A program made the position numbers and the translations under genes. From contig CP060227.1 in NCBI GenBank assembly GCA_023898525.1, forward strand, positions 429,634-493,633: a stretch of 64,000 nucleotides of DNA, read 5' to 3'. Within the stretch, counting starts at the first letter, position 1. Every line of letters begins with the position of its first letter. The DNA comes from Candidatus Nomurabacteria bacterium (GTDB lineage: Bacteria > Patescibacteriota > Minisyncoccia > Phycocordibacterales > UBA918). Of this stretch, positions 1-40,226 are shown piece by piece. A model generated the notes under the pieces. It did not search any database, had not been told where the DNA came from, and saw only the letters and a list, made by a program, of their open reading frames with translations.

Positions 1-118
1 CTGCAGGTAGGCGGCATCTTTACCGCCATTGTATTTTCACCGAGCAGGTCCTCGAGACAGTTTCCCACTCGTTACGCCATTCGTGCACGTCGGAACTTAC
101 CCGACAAGGAAATACGCT

Positions 119-390
119 CTATATCTCCTTCTCCTACAAAATAAATTGTAGACATTTCACTATAGGACTCTATCTTCACCCTTCTGATATTTTGGTATAA
201 CTCCTTAGTTGAATAAGTATTTCATTCAACTAATTTGATATCCCATATCAAATTAGGGTGTGCAACATTTGGTCTCTTGTTGGTTGCATTTGGACAATCT
301 TACATTTCTGTAAGTAAGGTAACTATGGCTAGGCTGCTTAACCTACAATCGTTCTAGTCCGTTTGATGCACGTATTTCTACACGCACCAA
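119..390 (-). other. Intervening sequence 1 in 23S rRNA (~270 nt, no ORF) at the E. coli L1931-equivalent site; candidate small group I intron
   Basis: The conserved 23S sequence CCTAAGGT|AGCGAAATTCCTTGTCGGG is continuous in E. coli. Here CCTTAGAACG ends at 391-400, and cccgacaaggaaatacgctct ends at 120. The ~270 nt between them has no 23S counterpart and contains internal hairpins, for example ccctaatttgatatgggatatcaaattag. Confidence 0.55.
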
Positions 391-1147
391 ACCTTAGAAC
401 GATTATAGTTATCGCTGACATTTACTGGGGCTTATACAGTCCAGCAATACAATCCGAAGATCATATCACCCCCCGTATTTAACCTTCCAGCATAGGTCAG
501 GCGTCACCCTCTATACATGGACTTACGTCTTCGCAGAGAGCTGTGTTTTTGTTAAACAGTCGGCAGGAAATCTTTCGCTGCGGCCCTTACCCCGAAGGGT
601 TTGGGCGGACCTTATCCCTAAGTTACGGTCGCTTTTTTGCCGAGTTCCTTGAGGACCTCTCACTCGTTCGCCTTAGTCTTCTCGACTCTACCACCTGTGT
701 CGGTTTGCGGTACGGAACCACTATGTTTAACCCAAACGAAGTTTTTCTCGGAAGCGTGCTCCTCAAATCGGTTTGACGAATCTCCCCTTCAGACTCACCT
801 TGGAGTATTGCCATGCGGATTTGCCTACATGACCTCCTCAGTGCTCCAGCACCAATCCAATAAGATGCTTTGAGTACAACACTCCGTCCCTCCATAGGAA
901 CATAGCAGTGTGCAGGAATATTAACCTGCTATCCATCGAGTCCCCCTTTCGGGATTCCCTTAGGACCGACTAACCCTTCGCTGATCACCATCGCAAAGGA
1001 AACCTCGGTATTTCGGCGGACGGGGGTCTCACCCGTCTTGCGGTTACTTGTGCCGGCATTCTCACTCCTCCTCGCTCCATCTTGGCTCCCGCCTTGAGTT
1101 CATCGCAGAGAAGGACGCTCTCCTACCACTTGTAGGCTTCATTGAGG

Positions 1148-1425
1148 ATCCGAGGACGAATCCTCGGAAAATTATTTTAACGAAATGTTTTTCTCATACT
1201 TCAAATTTTGAGACAGAATATGGTATTTTTTTGATACTTCTTTCAATACTTCCTTTGCTTTATTAACCGCTTCATCATGTCCAAAAGCTTTTATTGGGGC
1301 CTTTTCACGTTTAATAGAATTCGTAAAGCCTACCATCCTTGAAAAGAAACTATCGTTTATATAAGAATAATATAAAAAATACCCTTCCTCTTCTTTACTC
1401 ATTTTTTCCTCCTGTTATTTTACTT
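1148..1425 (-). other. Intervening sequence 2 in 23S rRNA helix 45 (~278 nt), flanked by a 19-bp perfect inverted repeat, carrying a protein-coding ORF
   Basis: tgtaggcttcattgagg (1131-1147) and cctcaatgaagcctaca (1426-1442) form an extended helix-45 stem. Everything between is absent from E. coli 23S, whose corresponding hairpin is GCAGCGACGCUUAUGCGUUGUUG. Helix 45 is a classical site for RNase III-excised IVS. Confidence 0.65.
1172..1402 (-). CDS. 76-aa protein encoded inside 23S IVS2; N-terminus resembles small GIY-YIG nucleases (YhbQ/UPF0213-like: FLY...G.T......R)
   Basis: The ORF lies fully within the insertion. A strong SD, AGGAGGAAAAAATG, sits upstream (revcomp of 1403-1416). The motif GYFLYYSYINDSFFSRMVGFTNSIKRE parallels the [24 protein letters not shown] of GIY-YIG family members. 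Confidence 0.45.
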   Translation of the reverse strand: MSKEEEGYFLYYSYINDSFFSRMVGFTNSIKREKAPIKAFGHDEAVNKAKEVLKEVSKKYHILSQNLKYEKNISLK

Positions 1426-1526
1426 CCTCAATGAAGCCTACAAATCCGCAGTTTCGGTAATATGCTTGAGCCCCGATCATCTTCGGCGCAAGGACTCTCG
1501 ACCAGTGAGCTGTTACGCTTTCTTTA

Positions 1527-2174: not shown

Positions 2175-3473
2175 TTCAAGAATATTTAGCCTTACCAGTT
2201 AGTACTGGTGGATTCACCCGAGCTATTCATGTCTCGGGCTACTCAGGAACAAAAACCAAAGAGATGTATATATTTCGAATACAGGACTATTACCTTCTAG
2301 GGTCGTACTTTCCAGTACATTTTCCTATATATACATTTTGTAACTCTTCGCAACTAAATGCCGTTTTTGCCCTACAACCCCATACATATAAATACGTATG
2401 GTTTGGGCTCTTCCCGTTTCGCTCGCCGCTACTAAGAGAATCGCAAGAACCTTCTTCCTAAACGTAATGGCGCTCTCGCACCACAGTTCAGGAATTTCTC
2501 CCTGAACTGGATGCTAAAGCATCCGTTCAGAAAGAAAGTTCCACTATTGCTTTCTATTCCTACAGGTACTGAGATGTTTCACTTCCCTGCGTACGCCTCC
2601 TCATACAAGGATCACTGCCGATGACAGCGGGGTTTCCCCATTCAGACATTTCCGGGTCAAAGGTTGATTGGCACCTCACCGAAACTTATCGCAGCCATTC
2701 CACGTCTTTCTTCGCTTCTTGAAGCCTAGGCATCCACCATACACCCTTACATTCCTGTAAGGAACGCTATACACCGTTTGGCTTTACGTTCGCTTACCTT
2801 CATGCTGTGCACCGCTGCACAATTTTTGAGTGTGTGTCTCTGCTTGAAAAAATACAGTAATTCAAACAGAGACGTGTCTCATCTAAAAGATGAGACGTTG
2901 TGTTTGATTTGTCGTGGACGAAAAGACCCTGTCCGAAGACATAAAATCTTTACACGACAAATCGGTTTACCTACAGTGTGAAAATCACGAAGTGATTTTC
3001 ACACTATTGCCACGCGCGCGTCGAACACGCGTGGACTTTTCGGAACAGACCTTATCAATCTGTTCCTTTTAGAATATGCGATTGCGTGGTCTTTGCCACA
3101 CAACCCCCAATCACTTGATCAGGCGACAGAAAGTATGAACATGAATCATATTCGCACTTTCTGTCGCTCGACTTCAGTTCTTGAGAATTGTCAACGATCG
3201 CGTACCTCCGTAAGTTTAGTTTAAAAAAACCGCGTGACCGCGGGAAAGACGTAAAAACGAATTTCGCGCGATTAGCTATTTCTTGTTCCTAAACTCATAA
3301 ATACGTGAGCGCCATTGTATACGAATCAAAAATAAAGTCAAGCGTTTATTGTGGTTAAAAGTAGCCTACTTATGTACTTTTTATTCACAGTTTTATGCAC
3401 AATAAAAAATACCTTTGCGGTAGACCCTTTTTCAGCCACACAAACAAAATACAGCGCTTTTATTATTAGTAAA

Positions 3474-5015: not shown

Positions 5016-5046
5016 AATCAGCCATTAAAGCGCGCGCCTTCGGCGC
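5016..5046. terminator. Hairpin terminator (ttaaagcgcgcgcc ttcg gcgcgcgctttaa)
   Basis: 14-bp GC stem with TTCG loop, 3' of CDS 5061..6260 (minus). Confidence 0.6.
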
Positions 5047-5060
5047 GCGCTTTAATGCTT

Positions 5061-6260
5061 TTATAGAATATCCAACTGATTTAATATATCAATATGATCT
5101 TGATTAGTAGGATCATATTTACCAACCAAAAATCTTTCAACCTCTGGATCAGGACTCTCTATCAGATCTTTAACTCCCAAATAACCTGAAAAATAAATCA
5201 AATCACGAGTAAATGCCTCACCGGCACTTTGCCCAGTAGTCCCCCTGAAAGTTCTCATGCAACGTTTCCACGATTCATCTAGTATACGCTCTTTAGAAAC
5301 ACCTAGCATTTCATAATATTCTTTGGACAGATTAAATATCTGCCTGAAGTTAAACTTTTGCTTAGGATAAAGACCCATAATTAAACAGGTGTTAAAATAA
5401 TTTATAGTCCCCGGCATACTTTTATCTATGAATGACTGTCTGTAGGTAGCCAACCCCTCCTCTCCTTTTAAGTACTGACCCAACCCAACCGATAACAACA
5501 AAAGTGGGCTTTTAAGACCATTATAGTGTCTTGCTAAATGGACATTAATCTCATGCTCTACCAAAGCCCCAGCTTCTGTCTTTGTCACCTTCCTTGTTTC
5601 CGGTATCAACACAGACTTTCTACCGTAACTTAAGGTTATAACCAAAACAGTCGAATCAACCTGCACCTGCCACGGTATATTTTTTTCGACTAAAGCTTTT
5701 TTAAAAAACTCAACCAACTCATCAATTGTTAAATAATTTTGAACATCACTTGGTTTATATTCTATGTCAGAACCATCAGCCTCTACCTCAAAATAATCAG
5801 CTAAGTCGTTCCACTTTTCACTTAAAGCAAAGTTATGCCTTTCTGCCACATAAAGAGTAGCTGCTAAAGCCCGTCGCATGATTTCCTCGTCAGGAGCGCC
5901 GTAGATCTGTTTTGAAGCCTCTGTCACCGTTTTGTCCCCCTGCCTGACAATCGCCTCTAGCAAAGATACCTTATGTAGCTGACTCTCAATTTTTAGAGCA
6001 TAGGCTTTTTTAACCGCCAGGTGAGCAGAATTATCACTACTTACTATTTCTTGTAGTTCTAGCAGCTTGGTTTTATGATGTGATACTGCCTGTATATCAA
6101 CATTATATTTGAGAGTTGGCTCGTCGATAAGTCCGGCCAAAAATAACTCCTTTTGTCTAGCCATCTTAGCCTGATCAAACTTGATGTAGTCGATATCGTC
6201 AAAGGCACAGCCGTCTTTGTATATCTCAAACCAGTCTTTATCTAAAGCTTCCCTTTGCAT
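5061..6260 (-). CDS. DUF1704-like protein (QEGLA-motif family; HEINVH motif)
   Basis: 399-aa ORF containing ALVEHEINVHLARH and KGEEGLATY, reminiscent of the flavohemoglobin-expression-modulating QEGLA family. Confidence 0.5.
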   Translation of the reverse strand: MQREALDKDWFEIYKDGCAFDDIDYIKFDQAKMARQKELFLAGLIDEPTLKYNVDIQAVSHHKTKLLELQEIVSSDNSAHLAVKKAYALKIESQLHKVSLLEAIVRQGDKTVTEASKQIYGAPDEEIMRRALAATLYVAERHNFALSEKWNDLADYFEVEADGSDIEYKPSDVQNYLTIDELVEFFKKALVEKNIPWQVQVDSTVLVITLSYGRKSVLIPETRKVTKTEAGALVEHEINVHLARHYNGLKSPLLLLSVGLGQYLKGEEGLATYRQSFIDKSMPGTINYFNTCLIMGLYPKQKFNFRQIFNLSKEYYEMLGVSKERILDESWKRCMRTFRGTTGQSAGEAFTRDLIYFSGYLGVKDLIESPDPEVERFLVGKYDPTNQDHIDILNQLDIL

Positions 6261-6985: not shown

Positions 6986-6998
6986 GAATTTAAAAGTA

Positions 6999-7355
6999 TT
7001 GTTGATACAAACTATTCCTATCATGACTCGTCATACAACAGGAGGATTGGTATCTCTTGGCGTTAACATAGCCAATATTACTAGCGTAGACAATATAAAA
7101 AACGCTTTGGCTTTCATGCGAGAAAATCGGTGCGACCTGATAATTGTTGATACTAAAATTGTTGAGGATTTAAGCAACAACAGGATTTCAGACATCAGCT
7201 CTTCAGGTCAAAAAATTATTCTGATAATCGGCAATTACGATAAAAATAATCTGGCCAATGCAAAAAACAACGGTGTTTCTAAGTGCATTGTAAAACCATT
7301 CCAACCAGTAACACTGGGAGAAGTAATCGATAGTGTGTTTAACAAGACCACTTAA
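6999..7355 (+). CDS. Stand-alone CheY-like receiver-domain protein (atypical N-terminus; start possibly at 7023)
   Basis: DLIIVDTKI and a conserved KPF near the C-terminus suggest a REC fold, but the N-terminal acidic pocket residues are not evident. Confidence 0.45.
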   Translation: MLIQTIPIMTRHTTGGLVSLGVNIANITSVDNIKNALAFMRENRCDLIIVDTKIVEDLSNNRISDISSSGQKIILIIGNYDKNNLANAKNNGVSKCIVKPFQPVTLGEVIDSVFNKTT

Positions 7356-8993: not shown

Positions 8994-9067
8994 CGGGGTG
9001 TAGCATAGTGGTAGTGTGCACGCATGGGGTGCGTGTGGCCCGAGTTCGATTCTCGGCATCCCGACCA
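8994..9067 (+). tRNA. tRNA-Pro (anticodon GGG)
   Basis: Manual fold of the 74-nt sequence cggggtgtag...catcccgacca. The acceptor stem is CGGGGTG/CATCCCG with the C1:G72 pair typical of bacterial tRNA-Pro. The anticodon stem is CACGC/GCGTG with loop ATGGGGT. The T-arm is CCGAG TTCGATT CTCGG, followed by discriminator A plus encoded CCA. Confidence 0.8.
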
Positions 9068-10382: not shown

Positions 10383-11135
10383 TTAAAATGCAAATAGATT
10401 GTCTTTGTAATTCAACCACTCAAACAACTCTTCCTTTATATTATCTTTTGTTTCAAAGTATTCCGGAAAAGAATCAGGATTTAAGATCATTTTTTCCGGT
10501 CTAGTGCTTCCTAAATAATCCTGCAAACTAGAATACTGAAAAGACGCACAAAAATCATATGATTTTTGTGCGTCTTTTATCCCCTCCTCTTTCCAAGTTG
10601 AGTCTATCAACTTTACCGGATTTAAATGGATATAAGCATATAGATATTTTAAATATTCATCTGTATCAGTATGTTCTGCTTTAAAAGTACCCTGAAATAA
10701 TGATCCGCTTCGATTATTTTTCTTATTGAAATACATTGAGTAACCAGTTGCTAACTTTTTCATAAAAGCAGTTACCCCACCATCAACCATTGGTGTTATC
10801 AAAATATGAAAATGATTAGGCATAAGACAATAAGCTCCGATGGATACAAGTTTGTTTTTACGATCAAATTCGTACACAGAAGCAAATCGTTCGCGAATGT
10901 CCCTGACACTAATATGAAGTGCTGAGTTTGAAAGAAACATAAGTTCTGTAAATCTGTTGTAATCTTGTGAGTCTAAGAAAATTGTACGCTTATCTACTCC
11001 TCGGTTGTAAACATGATAAAATTCATTTTCAACAAAACCTATAGTTCTTGTACTCATTACTAAATAATATAGCATGTCATCAAACCTACCCCGAGGAAAG
11101 ACCTCGGGGTAGGTTTGGTTGGTTTGGTTAAACAC
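10383..11135 (-). CDS. REP-associated tyrosine transposase (RAYT) / IS200-like Y1 transposase, long form
   Basis: 250 aa with YHVYNRGVDKRTIF and YCLMPNHFHILI (HuH motif), the classic COG1943 pattern. Confidence 0.8.
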   Translation of the reverse strand: MFNQTNQTYPEVFPRGRFDDMLYYLVMSTRTIGFVENEFYHVYNRGVDKRTIFLDSQDYNRFTELMFLSNSALHISVRDIRERFASVYEFDRKNKLVSIGAYCLMPNHFHILITPMVDGGVTAFMKKLATGYSMYFNKKNNRSGSLFQGTFKAEHTDTDEYLKYLYAYIHLNPVKLIDSTWKEEGIKDAQKSYDFCASFQYSSLQDYLGSTRPEKMILNPDSFPEYFETKDNIKEELFEWLNYKDNLFAF

Positions 11136-35982: not shown

Positions 35983-36561
35983 TTAGAGGTGGCTATTCGC
36001 AACTGCGTTGTCTATTAGTTTCTTCATTTTTTCAGCTGACAACTCAGATTCATATTCAGCCAAGGTACTGGCCGGGGCCACCTTGAAGTTTTTGGGAATA
36101 TCTTTTGAATCAACATAGCCAAGCTCGTCCAAAATCCTTAATTGCACCGCCAATTCCAGAAAGCTGCGCTTTTGACACTCACTAATCAAAAGACGCGAGG
36201 CACCAACACAGAAGTCAAAAAGTAAAGAGTGCGCCTCCTCACCATGGACAAACCGCCTTAAGGTCTTCATAAGCATGACCACACTACCACGAGCCTCACG
36301 ACTCTTAGCTGTAGCAAAATAGTTTGGCCCTGGAACAACACTACCGATTCGCCAACCTTGCTTACCTTTCACTAAAGAGACTCTGATTTGAGAAAACTCT
36401 TGCAAGGCCGGCCGCTGCTTCGACCGCTCTTCGCGCACACTACGGGCAGTAGCATAGAGCATGCCTGCCTCACGGGTAAAAAGCACAAATACCTTATCAG
36501 CGGTATTGTGCAAAAAACTACCGCAAACTATCGCCTCTGTGATGTAGGTTTGGTATGACAT
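35983..36561 (-). CDS. recO: DNA repair protein RecO-like
   Basis: N-terminal OB-fold pattern (TEAIVCGSF...VFVLFTREAGMLYATARSVRE), 192 aa; abuts ileS. Confidence 0.5.
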   Translation of the reverse strand: MSYQTYITEAIVCGSFLHNTADKVFVLFTREAGMLYATARSVREERSKQRPALQEFSQIRVSLVKGKQGWRIGSVVPGPNYFATAKSREARGSVVMLMKTLRRFVHGEEAHSLLFDFCVGASRLLISECQKRSFLELAVQLRILDELGYVDSKDIPKNFKVAPASTLAEYESELSAEKMKKLIDNAVANSHL

Positions 36562-39500
36562 TAAACCTTAACAATAGAAATTAGGTATGAATTATCACCA
36601 ATTTGGATTTCTTTTCCTTTGGTTGTGGTAAATGTGATTTCTTTCGCTCCAACCACTTTCTTGATTATATCTAGCTGTGCTTTTACCATCTCCTCACCAG
36701 CTGGTGATGTGGCTATGGTCAGAGTAATTACGTCCTGGGGCTTGAGACCAGACTCTTTACGCATATCCTGTATAACCCTAATCAATTCACGCGCCTCTCC
36801 CTCCTGTTTCAATTCGGTAGTAATATTAGTGTCGAGTACCACTACTTCAGACTGAGTTTCGTTGACTGTAACCGTCTTTACATTAACCTCGTCTGCAATC
36901 ACACTTAATAACTCTGAATCAACCGGTTTAGAGACCGACAAAGACGACAGTGGTTGTCGTACCTTTATTCCAGATCGTGTGCGCTGCTCCAAAGCCAAGG
37001 TCACTAATTCACGGGTAGTCCTCATACAATCAAGTAAAACTTCATTAACAGACCCGGTCTCTGGCCACTTAGCCAAGTGCACGCTCTCTGCCTCACTTTC
37101 ATCTCGCACTGCTCGGTATAGATATTCAGCGTAGAAAGGCATGGCCGGTGCCATTACCTTGGCTAATTCACGAAGGACATAGCGCAAGGTACCAAGCGCT
37201 AGCTTCTTGTCTTCCACATCCTCACCCTTGAGACGGTCACGTGAGCGGCGGAGATACCACACGGACAAATCATCAATAAAATCAGTAATTGGTCGCACGG
37301 CTTTATCGAGCTCATAAGCTTTGTAACCAGCAGTTGATTCGGCGATCAGTTGATTGAGGCGCGCCACGATCCAGCGATCTAAAACATTATTGGAATCGTG
37401 GCGCGGTTCGGAAGCCCCCCGGGCTTCCTCACCACCATCCGCAAACATTTCATACATCGCCAGTACATTATGAAGTCGTCCGATATTCTTCCGTTGTATT
37501 TCAAGCACGTCTTTTTCGGCGAAGCTCAAATCTTCACTATGCACTACCGGCGAAGACAAAAGATAATACCGCATCGAGTCTGCCCCCAAGCGACCCACGA
37601 GCTCCATCGGATCAGGATAGTTCTGCAATGACTTACTCATTTTCTTTCCATCCTCCGCCAAAACCAATCCGTTTACAATCACATTCTCATACGGCGACTT
37701 ACCAAAAAGCGCCACCCCTAAGACGAGCATGGAGTAAAACCACCCCCGAGTCTGATCTAGACCCTCAGCAATAAACTGCGCCGGGAAACGCTCTGCCTCG
37801 AACTTTTCCTTATTTTCAAACGGATAATGAAGCTGCCCATACGGCACCGACCCACTCTCAAACCAACAGTCAAAGACATCCGGCACTCGCTTTAATTCCT
37901 CCCCGTCTTCATACAACTTAATATCGTCGATATATGGTCGATGATAATCGAGTTCGTAGCTGTCGTTATGAGGAAATGGCACAAACGGCAAAGCTCTGAG
38001 CTCTGCGTTATTTAAGTCGTAGGTATTTTCCTCAATAATCTTTCCTAAAGTTTCAAAATCATCACCTTTGGCGACCGCTTGCAACATCTGCAAAGTCCCG
38101 TTATGAGAAACAAACAAAACATTCTTATCCTTATGCTTTGTTTCAATTTCATTCAACAATTCACCCGCTCGTCTTTTCACATCCGTCCAGTTTTCTCCTC
38201 CTTCTGGAGTTTTGGTCAAACGATCAGTTCCAGTCGTAAAAAAAGCGTGATATTCACTTACAGTCTTGCCATCAAATTCACCAAACCGTACTTCAAGCAA
38301 ACGTTCGTCCGCCACTAAAACCTCCTTAGACAAACCTAGTCCTTCCGCTACTTTCTCTGCCGTTTCTTTCGTGCGTTGTAGTGGAGAATAATAAATAAGA
38401 TCAATCTTTTCGGCTTTTAGTTTTTCTACCAACTCACTTACCTGCTCTTTACCTTTATCAGTAATACCATTCTCAACCGCCACATCCACATTTAAAGTCT
38501 CTTTGGTATTCAAAGCTGATTCAGCGTGACGGGTAATAAAGTATTTATTGCCACTTTTGGGCACAAATTCCTGCATCTCAGCCATGCTACCGAACACCTT
38601 ATATTCACCAGTCTTTTCATTTTTCCAGATCGGCAGTGGCGCACCCCAATAACGCTGCCTAGACACCGCCCAGTCGCGTGCCCCTTCCAGCCACTTGCCA
38701 AAGCGGTTTTGTCCGACATAATCCGGCACCCACTTCACTTTATTATTGGCGGCCACCAACTCATCTCTCATGTCAGTTACTTTCACAAACCACGATGTAG
38801 TCGCGTAATTTAAAAGCGGTGTGCTGTCGCGCCAACAATGCGGGTAACTGTGAGTGATATTTTCTTTCTTGAAAATCTTTCCAGCTGTTTGTAGGTGACG
38901 CAAGACTTCAATATCCGCATCCAAGTGCGACACCCGAGCTTCATCGTCATCTTTTGGCTTCACTAATTGCCCAGCAAAGTCAGTCACAAAATCCATAAAC
39001 CGCCCACCATAATCAACATGGTGTGCGATAGGAATATTATTTTCCTTAGCTACATTCATATCGTCCTCACCATAAGCCGGCGCCAAATGCACGACCCCAG
39101 TCCCCTCCTCACCAATTTCGACAAAATCCGCGTGGTAAATCTTCCAAGCTTTTTTTTCTTTTTCTTTCTCCTCATTAAAATCATCTATTCTTTTTGGGCC
39201 TCTAGGTGTTGCCCATAAATTTTCAAAGTAATTGAACGGTGGCTCGTATGACAGATCTAGCAAGTCTGAACCTTTCATTTCCTCTACCACCTCATAAGGC
39301 AAATCACCCAATTGAGCCAATCGACCTTTGGCTAAAATTACATTCTCGTATTTAATTTCCTTTTTTATTTCTCCATCAGCACCCACTCTGTCAGGAATAG
39401 TTGAGTTTAGAACAGAAACCTTCACATAATCCAACTCTTGATTGACCGCAATTGCCATATTACCTGGCAAAGTCCACGGGGTCGTCGTCCAAATCAAGAT

Positions 39501-40226
39501 ACTGGTATCAGTCTTATTACCGTTTTCATCCAGTAGTGGCATTTTGACCGTCACCGCGATATCCTTCACATCCTTATAACCTTGATTCACCTCAAAGTTA
39601 GACAAAGTCGTCCCACAGCGTGGACAAAGATGCATACTCTTAAATCCTTCATACACCAGCCCCTTTTCATGGAGTTGCTTAAATACCCACCACACACTTT
39701 CGGTGTAGTTTGAGTCCATGGTCTTGTAATCATTTTCCATGTCGACAAACCGACCAAGGCGCGGGATAATCTGTCGCCAATCATCCGCATACTCCAAGAC
39801 CGCCTCCCTAGCGGCTTCATTAAAATTCTTGATACCGTAGTCCTCGATATCTTTTTTGTTGGCTAGGCCAAGTTTTTTCTCAATCAAGTTCTCCAGGGGC
39901 AAACCATGACAATCCCAACCCCACTGCCGCCTTACGCGGTAGCCATTCATCGTCCAAAAACGCGGGATTGCATCTTTTATAGTGCCCGGCACTATATGAC
40001 CATAATGTGGCAAGCCAGTTGCAAACGGCGGTCCATCATAAAAAATATAATCTCCTTTAGGACTCTCTCCCGCCGGCTTCTCTACACTTTTATTAAAAAT
40101 ATCATTCTCCTCCCAAAAAGCCTGTACCTCTTCCTCCCGCAAAGCTACCTCAGACTTCTCTACTTCTTTCACCACCTCAACTGAATCGTTCTCACGACCG
40201 TGTACTTTTTTATCTTTCATATTCAA
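36561..40226 (-). CDS. ileS: Isoleucyl-tRNA synthetase with an embedded histidine-phosphatase (PGAM-like) domain (~170 aa insertion at 38037-38555)
   Basis: HYGH (LPHYGHIVPG) and KMSKSLQN class I motifs. Between the PIW block and HRPYIDD lies ITRHAES...SPLQRTKETA...VSHNGTL, matching histidine phosphatase signatures. Confidence 0.85.
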   Translation of the reverse strand: MNMKDKKVHGRENDSVEVVKEVEKSEVALREEEVQAFWEENDIFNKSVEKPAGESPKGDYIFYDGPPFATGLPHYGHIVPGTIKDAIPRFWTMNGYRVRRQWGWDCHGLPLENLIEKKLGLANKKDIEDYGIKNFNEAAREAVLEYADDWRQIIPRLGRFVDMENDYKTMDSNYTESVWWVFKQLHEKGLVYEGFKSMHLCPRCGTTLSNFEVNQGYKDVKDIAVTVKMPLLDENGNKTDTSILIWTTTPWTLPGNMAIAVNQELDYVKVSVLNSTIPDRVGADGEIKKEIKYENVILAKGRLAQLGDLPYEVVEEMKGSDLLDLSYEPPFNYFENLWATPRGPKRIDDFNEEKEKEKKAWKIYHADFVEIGEEGTGVVHLAPAYGEDDMNVAKENNIPIAHHVDYGGRFMDFVTDFAGQLVKPKDDDEARVSHLDADIEVLRHLQTAGKIFKKENITHSYPHCWRDSTPLLNYATTSWFVKVTDMRDELVAANNKVKWVPDYVGQNRFGKWLEGARDWAVSRQRYWGAPLPIWKNEKTGEYKVFGSMAEMQEFVPKSGNKYFITRHAESALNTKETLNVDVAVENGITDKGKEQVSELVEKLKAEKIDLIYYSPLQRTKETAEKVAEGLGLSKEVLVADERLLEVRFGEFDGKTVSEYHAFFTTGTDRLTKTPEGGENWTDVKRRAGELLNEIETKHKDKNVLFVSHNGTLQMLQAVAKGDDFETLGKIIEENTYDLNNAELRALPFVPFPHNDSYELDYHRPYIDDIKLYEDGEELKRVPDVFDCWFESGSVPYGQLHYPFENKEKFEAERFPAQFIAEGLDQTRGWFYSMLVLGVALFGKSPYENVIVNGLVLAEDGKKMSKSLQNYPDPMELVGRLGADSMRYYLLSSPVVHSEDLSFAEKDVLEIQRKNIGRLHNVLAMYEMFADGGEEARGASEPRHDSNNVLDRWIVARLNQLIAESTAGYKAYELDKAVRPITDFIDDLSVWYLRRSRDRLKGEDVEDKKLALGTLRYVLRELAKVMAPAMPFYAEYLYRAVRDESEAESVHLAKWPETGSVNEVLLDCMRTTRELVTLALEQRTRSGIKVRQPLSSLSVSKPVDSELLSVIADEVNVKTVTVNETQSEVVVLDTNITTELKQEGEARELIRVIQDMRKESGLKPQDVITLTIATSPAGEEMVKAQLDIIKKVVGAKEITFTTTKGKEIQIGDNSYLISIVKV

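Follow-up and report, generated by a model that had tools for sequence, protein, structure and literature searches.

The first 2760 bases of the window, a stretch of 64,000 nucleotides (nt) from Candidatus Nomurabacteria bacterium (assembly GCA_023898525.1, contig CP060227.1, positions 429,634 to 493,633 of the forward strand), are a bacterial 23S ribosomal RNA (rRNA) gene on the minus strand (Rfam LSU_rRNA_bacteria, 1530 bits), which is cut by the window start at position 2075 of the Rfam model. The local alignment to this model is broken by approximately 275 unaligned bases between ...CGUUCUA and AGCGUAUUUCCUUGUCGG. Here lies the subject of this paper, an insert of 272 nt at window positions 390 to 119, minus strand, which is probably a group I intron of an unusually reduced kind. 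It starts with UUGGUGCG (UUGGUGCGUG) and ends with GAGAUAUAG (GGAGAUAUAG). The 5′ exon ends in ...AAUCGUUCUAAGGU (...GCGAUAACUAUAAUCGUUCUAAGGU), with its last nucleotide at window position 391, and the 3′ exon begins at position 118 with AGCGUAUUUCCUUGUCGGGUAAGUUCCGAC (AGCGUAUUUCCUUGUCGGGUAAGUUCC). The junction thus reads ...UCUAAGGU / intron ...AUAUAG / AGCGUAUUUCC..., in which the exon words differ slightly from CCUAAGGU and AGCGAAAUUCC of the E. coli consensus. The joined exons align without gaps to E. coli 23S rRNA and place the junction after the U of CCUAAGGU, nt 1930 of the 2903-nt annotated rrl copy, which we take to be U1931 in the standard 2904-nt numbering (a one-base offset; landmark m5U1939). 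The insertion site is exactly L1931, between helix 69 (H69) and helix 71 (H71), and the junction is identical to that of the endonuclease-bearing L1931 introns.

A preliminary description, made from the sequence of the window, had proposed a candidate compact group I intron at positions 119-390. These coordinates proved exact to the base, and the split at the L1931-equivalent site is borne out by the gap-free exon alignment; the location was right, although the minus strand of the gene had gone unstated and the exon words quoted were those of the E. coli consensus, slightly off from the ones present here. The upstream exon does end in U and the insert in G, as described. The insert also has no open reading frame (ORF) of more than 46 codons from stop to stop on either strand, no homing endonuclease gene and no intron-encoded protein. 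The hairpins that had been noted are perfect or near-perfect 12-bp hairpins in a strongly folded RNA (minimum free energy (MFE) −73.1 kcal/mol, z = −5.5 against 200 shuffles). The G+C content is 36%, versus 49% in the flanking rRNA. No other copy of the intron or of the insertion in its P8 element was found in the 64-kb window. The 23S gene shows 94-97% identity to that of a metagenome-assembled genome (MAG; locus L082) and 89-92% to that of an uncultured Saccharibacteria MAG (L008).

Introns at the identical junction were collected by a genome scan, with one genome per species, for GATANAGTC followed by the 3′ exon after 30-60 nt. More than 120 loci were obtained, and these fall into three groups. 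The first consists of introns of endonuclease size (613-750 nt), as in the L1931 literature (PMC1995217). The second comprises ORF-less introns of canonical type, 218-322 nt in length and bearing the customary words UAUAUGCGGGAA and AAUCCGCAGG; these pass the Rfam threshold. The third group is closest to the window intron; it stems from Saccharibacteria, Nomurabacteria, Paceibacteria and Kaiserbacteria MAGs, has exons typical of the candidate phyla radiation (CPR), and scores below the Rfam threshold. A metagenome scan with a family-specific pattern added 75 loci. Together, independent MAGs and metagenomes yielded at least 55 distinct full-length introns of 193-306 nt at this same junction, which are referred to here as the mini family (alignment A1). 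All 55 have a 5′ exon ending in ...AAUCGUUCUAAGGU, a 3′ exon AGCG(U/C)A(U/A)UUCC and a terminal G. With a covariance model of the family, members score 217-257 bits and the window intron 236 bits. Among approximately 1.2 Mb of fetched loci, the architecture with a local P3 hairpin was found in L1931 members only, and a scan of viral contigs gave no matches.

The search patterns themselves fixed parts of the sequence: the metagenome pattern contained CATAGYTACCTT and AGAGACCAAATG (part of the internal guide and of the conserved core word R), and the genome pattern part of core word S and of the 3′ exon. Each core block is nevertheless invariant in the subset in which the search had left that block free. 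R (AGAGACCAAAUG) is kept in 13 of the 13 members found without the R word, AAGAUAGAGUCCU in all 42 metagenome members, whose search pattern lacked it, and the guide reads GYUACCUU in 13 of 13 members found without the guide word.

The secondary structure of the family (Table 1) was derived from A1 using a mutual-information screen, an explicit pair count and RNAalifold, which all agree. Over the whole structure 93.1% of alignment cells are paired, compared with 40-45% when the partners are slid by 1-3 columns, and the covariation score of 0.379 was reached by none of 500 shuffles (0.159). Changes on both sides are seen in 38 pairs, and RNAalifold on its own recovers the helices H1, P2, P3 and P8 together with the two exon clamps. 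In the catalytic half of the molecule, P3 is paired in 99.7% of cells, with double changes in five of its six pairs; the closing stem of P8 covaries at 131:214, 133:212 and 135:210; and three of the four P9.0 pairs have changed on both sides, including 228:270 and 229:269. The interior of P8 is variable across the family, and the window copy is approximately 50 nt longer than most, with two perfect hairpins. J8/7 matches the consensus AAGAUAUAG of RF00028, the Rfam group I model (Intron_gpI). In the 5′ half, the HX pair 34:96 is C-G in 27 sequences, U-A in 22 and U·U in five, and the linker that follows the 5′ clamp contains the word GCCAUA in 54 of the 55 sequences; no conserved RNA partner for this linker (48-67) was found among the unpaired segments.

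The group I assignment made in the preliminary description is supported by these data, as P3, P8 and P9.0 covary among the 55 members and P7, J8/7 and the terminal G are invariant. The P3-P7 core and a putative guanosine-binding site, whose absence would have spoken against it, were looked for and found. P3 and P7 form a pseudoknot with P8 between their 3′ strands, a bulged P7 with the conserved J8/7 provides a putative guanosine-binding helix, and the terminal G (omega-G) is placed by P9.0, with a P10 pairing available in addition. When the insert is folded from P1 to P9, as had been suggested, P3, P7, P8, P9.0 and P9 are all found, but P4-P5-P6, normally nested in P3 with J3/4 and J6/7, is missing, and the U at the cleavage site faces A rather than the G of the usual U·G wobble in P1. 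Similarly, the suggested Intron_gpI search aligned the core elements, placing R (AGAGACCAAAUG), P3, the long P8 and J8/7-P7 (GAAGAUAGAGUCC) correctly while dropping 81 consecutive model positions that make up the P4-P5-P6 part, but its score was low (see below). The single-motif LAGLIDADG gene of the L1931 lineage is absent from the insert and present in its relative L007 (LAGLIDADG_1). By its sequence features, then, the set of P3, P7, P8, J8/7 and P9.0 is a group I catalytic core, atypical in three ways: it has no P4-P6, a U-A pair at the splice site, and exon clamps. Group II introns are characterised by a 5′ GUGYG, six domains with a conserved domain V, and a length above 400 nt. The insert has 272 nt and no Rfam group II match, and the first nucleotides vary in the family (UUGG, AGAG, CGAG and others).

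The absence of P4-P6 is uniform. The 5′ strands of P3 and P7 are separated by exactly 6 nt in 55 of 55 members, and P3 is a local hairpin. No further conserved helix or complementarity that might substitute for P4-P6 was found among the unpaired conserved segments, nor was a P4-P6-like RNA or a second Intron_gpI-like piece found elsewhere in the 64-kb window. The origin of this arrangement can be judged from L007, L029 and L115, three CPR introns of 745-750 nt that share the site and whose P8 harbours a LAGLIDADG_1 gene (E = 1.2e-27). Their 5′-terminal 106-111 nt are homologous in layout to the mini family, with the same order of a hairpin at nt 1, A, GGAC, exon-complementary guide, linker, internal guide, GNRA hairpin, GUCC, an AAAU-like segment and the P3 5′ strand; the word equivalent to the 3′ strand of HX is GUCC in L115 and GUCA in L007 and L029. 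The family covariance model matches the 5′ domains of L007 and L029 (45 bits, E ~3e-11). After the P3 5′ strand these introns carry 112-114 nt, a block that Rfam aligns in L115 to J3/4-P4-P5-P6-J6/7. Since L007-type introns hold both, the 5′ domain of the mini family is an elaborated P1-P2 and not a disguised P4-P6; the ideas that HX is a remnant of P4, or the 5′ domain a permuted P4-P6, were rejected on the same grounds. The mini family is best read as the L007-type layout minus the endonuclease gene and minus P4-P6, that is, as a natural P4-P6 deletion.

Two of the relatives deserve separate mention. The L029 contig (CAZFUP010000012.1) is labelled 'uncultured Gammaproteobacteria', but has a CPR-type 23S exon and an intron nearly identical to that of a Falkowbacteria MAG, which suggests that it is mis-binned. 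In L021, a Nomurabacteria MAG (5021-5266 and 6988-7060), the same 23S gene has a second intron that passes Rfam as group I (57 bits), and this 23S span also contains a match to a tRNA model.

In the mini family the exons are gripped on both sides of the splice junction. The 5′ clamp is a helix of 13 bp between intron positions 47..35 and exon positions −17..−5; A1 covers 11 of these pairs, and there pairing is 100% in the 55 sequences, and the four intron positions that vary do so only between A and G opposite an exon U. At exon position −8, L007, L029 and L115 have C with a guide G, and the mini family has U with a guide A or G, which from the aligned sequences is a compensatory change across hosts. 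The 3′ clamp comprises 7 bp, and its pair 267:+7 is A-U in 40 sequences and U-A in 12, a compensatory change of exon and intron.

Between the two clamps, the internal guide GUUACCUU is complementary to the ligated junction AAGGU/AGC. ACCU (intron 74..71) can pair with the invariant exon AGGU in a predicted P1 of 4-5 bp (ACCU(U)/(A)AGGU), and GUU with AGC in a predicted P10, which is possible throughout the family; the exon partners of both are invariant. Among the 13 members found without the guide word, 12 have GUUACCUU and one has GCUACCUU, where the sole change (U69C) faces G+2; in all 13 the splice-site U(−1) faces A71 and not G. In L007, L029 and L115 the homologous position, just before the GNRA hairpin, is occupied by GUUGCCU. 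This is the ordinary L1931 guide, pairing AGGU/GCCU with a U·G and AGC/GUU for P10, and is located at the 5′ end of the canonical relatives. Taken together, the 5′ clamp, P1, P2 and HX would close a four-way junction with linkers of 0-3 nt.

Several other pairings were considered for this region and discarded. A helix of intron 45-53 (GUAGGUUAA) with 69-77, the first hairpin of the Rfam alignment, has a poorly conserved 5′ strand in which hairpin insertions occur and the pairing is lost. GCCUAG (58-63) as a guide with a bulged A and a U·G is contradicted by the variation of the word (GCCCGAG, GACCCAG, GCCGAG, UUAAGUG) opposite a constant exon. P1 as an extension of H1, with U(−1)-A29 and G(−2)-C30, would involve a linker of one or two variable nt that is a single A in L007 and L115. 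A U(−1)·G31 pair closing a 3x3 internal loop on a 10-bp exon helix is at odds with the covariation of GGAC with GUCC at 96-99, and the pairing of GGAC 31-34 with GUCC 223-226, the partner of S in the single-sequence MFE structure, has no covariation support.

Individual members depart from the common plan at defined points. Hairpin insertions of 20-180 nt are tolerated at a single place, where the exon-complementary guide gives way to the conserved linker (L081, L105, L124, L134, L161 and L172, and also L125 and L148, whose introns are 415 nt long). The P9 hairpin is absent from five of the 55 mini introns (L126, L134, L145, L171 and L192), which would fit the loss of its usual docking partner, P5.

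Table 1. Elements of the L1931 insert and its exons (all on the minus strand; intron positions count from the 5′ splice site, exon positions from the junction)
Element	Window	Intron or exon	Description
5′ exon UAUAAUCGUUCUA	395..407	exon −17..−5	H69 loop and 3′ strand; exon side of the 13-bp 5′ clamp (helix G)
5′ exon AGGU	391..394	exon −4..−1	Exon side of P1; 5′ splice site after U at 391
H1	363..390	1-12/17-28	12-bp hairpin from nt 1, GAAA loop; 12/12 pairs changed on both sides, 90% of cells paired
HX 5′ strand GGAC	357..360	31-34	Pairs with GUCC at window 292-295
5′ clamp guide strand UAGAACGAUUGUA	344..356	35-47	Pairs with exon −17..−5 (helix G)
Linker GGUUAAGCAGCCUAGCCAUA	324..343	48-67	Conserved single strand; optional hairpin insertion at 5′ end
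Internal guide GUUACCUU	316..323	68-75	Predicted P1 with 5′ exon and P10 with 3′ exon
P2 CUUACA GAAA UGUAAG	299..314	77-82/87-92	Hairpin with GNRA-type loop; 6/6 pairs changed on both sides
HX 3′ strand GUCC	292..295	96-99	Would close four-way junction of helix G, P1, P2 and HX
P3 5′ strand UGCAAC	283..288	103-108	Pairs with window 261-266
J3/7 CAACAA	277..282		Fills the place of J3/4-P4-P5-P6-J6/7
P7 5′ strand	272..276	G115-A116(bulge)-G117-A118-C119	Part of R AGAGACCAAAUG; invariant; aligns to R of RF00028
P3 3′ strand GUUGCA	261..266	125-130	
P8	177..260	131-214	Closing stem CACCCU/AGGGUG, 131-136/209-214
J8/7 AAGAUAGA	169..176	215-222	Invariant in 42 metagenome members found without the J8/7 word
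P7 3′ strand GUCC	165..168	G223-U224-C225-C226	Invariant; 100% paired with P7 5′ strand
P9.0 5′ strand UAUA	161..164	227-230	Pairs with window 120-123
P9	134..151	240-245/252-257	Hairpin; covaries
3′ clamp tail strand AAGGAGA	124..130	261-267	Pairs with 3′ exon +13..+7
P9.0 3′ strand UAUA	123..120	268-271	
Omega-G	119	272	G in 55/55 members
3′ exon AGC	116..118	exon +1..+3	Exon side of P10; complementary to intron 70..68
3′ exon UUUCCUU	106..112	exon +7..+13	Exon side of 3′ clamp

The insert can be placed among several known systems. The LAGLIDADG introns at L1931 of Thermotoga, Simkania, Synechococcus and green-algal plastids (Haugen et al., 2007, PMC1995217), like the many MAG introns of 620-750 nt collected here, occupy the identical site and share the 5′ exon U, the terminal G, the P10 GUU and the core words …CAGAGACU… and GAAGAUAKAGUCC. 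They differ in their length of 613-750 nt, their homing endonuclease gene, a full P4-P6 with complex P5, a guide placed right at the 5′ end, and a G·U wobble; their canonical ORF-less counterparts pass Rfam with 68-93 bits. In sequence, the mini family resembles the LAGLIDADG type only within the R-S region (best nhmmer E = 2e-6). The L007/L029/L115 type, from Falkowbacteria-like MAGs (site 23IS7; Tsurumaki et al., 2024, PMC11270868), has the same 5′ domain order and the same core, but differs in its 112-114-nt J3/4-P4-P5-P6 block, LAGLIDADG_1 in P8 and a G·U wobble, and lacks the 3′ tail and 3′ exon clamp.

Intervening sequences (IVS) of 23S rRNA that are processed by RNase III (helices 25 and 45) are likewise short and ORF-poor, but their defining features, a long stem between their own ends, a site at a helix tip and excision without ligation, are absent from the L1931 insert. 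The intron in Azoarcus pre-tRNA-Ile and other small bacterial group I introns (approximately 200-250 nt) are comparable in size, ORF-less, and have a P2 hairpin with a GNRA loop, as does the L1931 insert; unlike the insert, they keep P4-P5-P6 and the G·U wobble. An engineered 'minimal catalytic domain' is described as likewise consisting of P3-P7-P8-P9 without P4-P6 (Ikawa, Shiraishi and Inoue, 2000; PMC2879505, PMC6257700). Such ribozymes are man-made, about 1000-fold slower than their parent and free of exon clamps, in contrast to the natural and conserved mini family.

That group I introns occur at L1931, and are abundant at this site (23IS7) in CPR 23S genes, was already known (PMC1995217, PMC11270868). 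For natural group I introns without P4-P6, a full-text literature search returned the engineered case only. As far as that literature shows, the core architecture is new, whereas the site is a known one, and by its sequence the insert truly derives from group I introns.

We conclude, with a probability of about 0.7, that the insert is a reduced group I intron at L1931, belonging to a CPR/Saccharibacteria family that has lost the endonuclease gene as well as P4-P5-P6, and that ordinary group I chemistry removes it from pre-23S rRNA. The catalytic half (P3, P7, P8, J8/7, P9.0 and omega-G) is intact and strictly conserved in a diverged family, which argues that this chemistry is still in use. In the proposed pathway, exogenous guanosine would bind P7 at G117-C225, beside the bulged A116, and attack after U(−1), held on the guide GUUACCUU by P1 (AGGU/ACCU). 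The terminal G272, placed by P9.0, would then take the place of the guanosine in P7, and the 5′ exon would attack the 3′ splice site, where the 3′ exon may be held by P10 (AGC/GUU). The exons, lying side by side on GUUACCUU and the two clamps, would be ligated and the H69-H71 region restored. In this scheme the four-way junction of 5′ clamp, P1, P2 and HX may substitute for the missing P4-P6 scaffold. We put forward more tentatively, at somewhat less than even odds, that the family represents a natural, widely conserved class of group I introns that splices without P4-P6 and without G·U, these having been replaced by a four-way-junction P1-P2 domain and exon clamps.

A number of observations bear on this conclusion, most of them against it. 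In model ribozymes, a Watson-Crick U-A pair instead of G·U at the cleavage site lowers activity. The G·U wobble is there read by J4/5 of the P4-P6 domain, and for this reason the joint loss of wobble and P4-P6 would be coherent. P1, P10 and P7 never vary in A1, and covariation therefore neither supports nor refutes them. The metagenome pattern fixed CATAGYTACCTT and AGAGACCAAATG, so that variants with G in the guide would have been missed. The insert does not reach the Rfam gathering score of Intron_gpI (23.6 versus 50 bits); the match, at window 153-350 on the minus strand, is seen under relaxed thresholds only, with an E-value of 4.8e-4 in a 391-nt search and 0.079 in the whole window. The family members L008, L044 and L021 likewise fall below this score, and canonical short L1931 introns pass (L097 92.6, L003 72.9, L094 71.8 and L009 68.1 bits). 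Splicing itself is deduced from conservation, and the statement of the preliminary description that the insert must be removed is better worded as an expectation, an unspliced L1931 intron being on record for Simkania (Everett et al., 1999). In PMC6257700, P4-P6 is described as one of two helical domains that are conserved universally among group I ribozymes, and as the scaffold for folding of the catalytic P3-P7 domain. A T4 td ribozyme engineered to lack P4-P6 is reported to be active still, at a rate reduced about 1000-fold (Ikawa et al., 2000, as cited in PMC2879505): the slowness counts against splicing, and the residual activity makes catalysis without P4-P6 chemically plausible.

The same slowness also speaks for the alternative that we take most seriously, and regard as quite possible though well short of even odds: the insert is of group I ancestry, and its RNA is insufficient on its own, requiring help from a protein (a host protein that acts like CYT-18 or like a maturase, a ribosomal protein, or an assembly factor) or from a P4-P6-like RNA in trans. 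Proteins such as CYT-18 can replace peripheral group I scaffolds (PMC6257700), the P4-P6 scaffold is missing here, and the 20-nt linker (48-67) is highly conserved with no RNA partner, as expected of a site of protein or tertiary contact. Set against such a helper are the lack of an intron-encoded protein, the absence of a second Intron_gpI-like piece from the 64-kb window (a small part of the genome), and the two gained exon clamps and closed four-way junction, which could themselves be the scaffold. Retention of the insert in mature 23S rRNA as an expansion segment, in the manner of the Simkania intron at the same site, would accommodate a core that is crippled by the usual standards. It is unlikely, as a passive segment needs none of the catalytic elements, terminal G and P9.0 that are invariant or covarying in 55 diverged members. 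In addition, the guide strand of the intron pairs with the loop and 3′ strand of H69, which has a role in bridge B2a, and if retained would compete with formation of this helix. Transcripts, moreover, reportedly lack the rRNA insertions of CPR bacteria, which are removed from them (PMC11270868, citing Brown et al., 2015).

The insert might also be cut out by RNase III or another nuclease and the ends left unjoined, so that the 23S rRNA would be in pieces. Such IVS-type excision is suggested by the classical IVS at helix 45 of this same gene, whose terminal stem of 19 bp is perfect, and by a published survey in which short unclassified Saccharibacteria rRNA insertions were not recognised as introns (PMC11270868). 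We consider it decidedly improbable for the L1931 insert, whose ends are unpaired with each other (the 5′ end lies in its own hairpin, the 3′ end pairs with J7/9 and the 3′ exon), whose site is that of group I introns and not an IVS site, and whose group I core features play no part in RNase III processing. It is very unlikely, finally, that the insert is a decaying relic in a non-functional rRNA gene or an assembly artefact. One family member, L189, may be degenerate, as it has lost everything from the 3′ half of H1 to the guide inclusive, and the rRNA gene is located where the contig or window ends; but compensatory substitutions are seen among 55 distinct sequences that come from many independent assemblies, and the flanking 23S, with its 1530 bits, is 91-97% identical to other Saccharibacteria-type genes.

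Other features of the window are recorded here for completeness. The helix-45 insertion (1130-1443, minus strand, approximately 308 nt) lies at the classical IVS site; its 19-bp inverted repeat (1130-1148 / 1425-1443) is perfect, it is absent from all related 23S genes, and it contains a 76-aa ORF (1172-1402, minus strand) after AGGAGG that matches nothing in Pfam or NCBIfam. An expansion of 102 nt (2445-2546, minus strand) lies close to the 5′ end of the 23S gene, between Rfam model positions ~228 and 229; its fold combines a long stem and a three-way junction (−56.7 kcal/mol, z = −9.5). No 16S rRNA gene was found upstream of the 23S gene within the window (2761-64000), and the rRNA genes therefore appear to be unlinked or widely spaced; the only other RNA gene found in the window is a tRNA-Pro (GGG) at 8994-9067. 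An isoleucyl-tRNA synthetase ORF of 1221 aa (36561-40226, minus strand) has a histidine-phosphatase / phosphoglycerate-mutase-like domain inserted at residues ~560-731, and an IS200/Y1-type transposase ORF (10383-11135, minus strand) adjoins a 695-aa protein with a peptidoglycan-binding domain.

A natural P4-P6 deletion with strict catalytic conservation makes the question of what the minimal natural group I ribozyme is directly testable. It can be asked whether the scaffold has been replaced by exon clamps, by the new junction or by a protein, and whether the G·U wobble matters only since P4-P6 reads it. If the family does splice without P4-P6, nature would have its own version of the engineered 'minimal catalytic domain'; if a helper is needed, the family would be well suited, as a clean system, to the identification of a group I splicing factor in bacteria. 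In the published survey, 64 of 66 Saccharibacteria rRNA insertions were reported as short sequences that contain neither group I nor group II introns (PMC11270868). Because at least the Saccharibacteria insertions at L1931 are group I derivatives missed by the Rfam model, intron counts for CPR rRNA genes are underestimates, and the 'unclassified short insertions' in the rRNA genes of Saccharibacteria would, if the family does splice without P4-P6 and the wobble, be re-classed as ribozymes.

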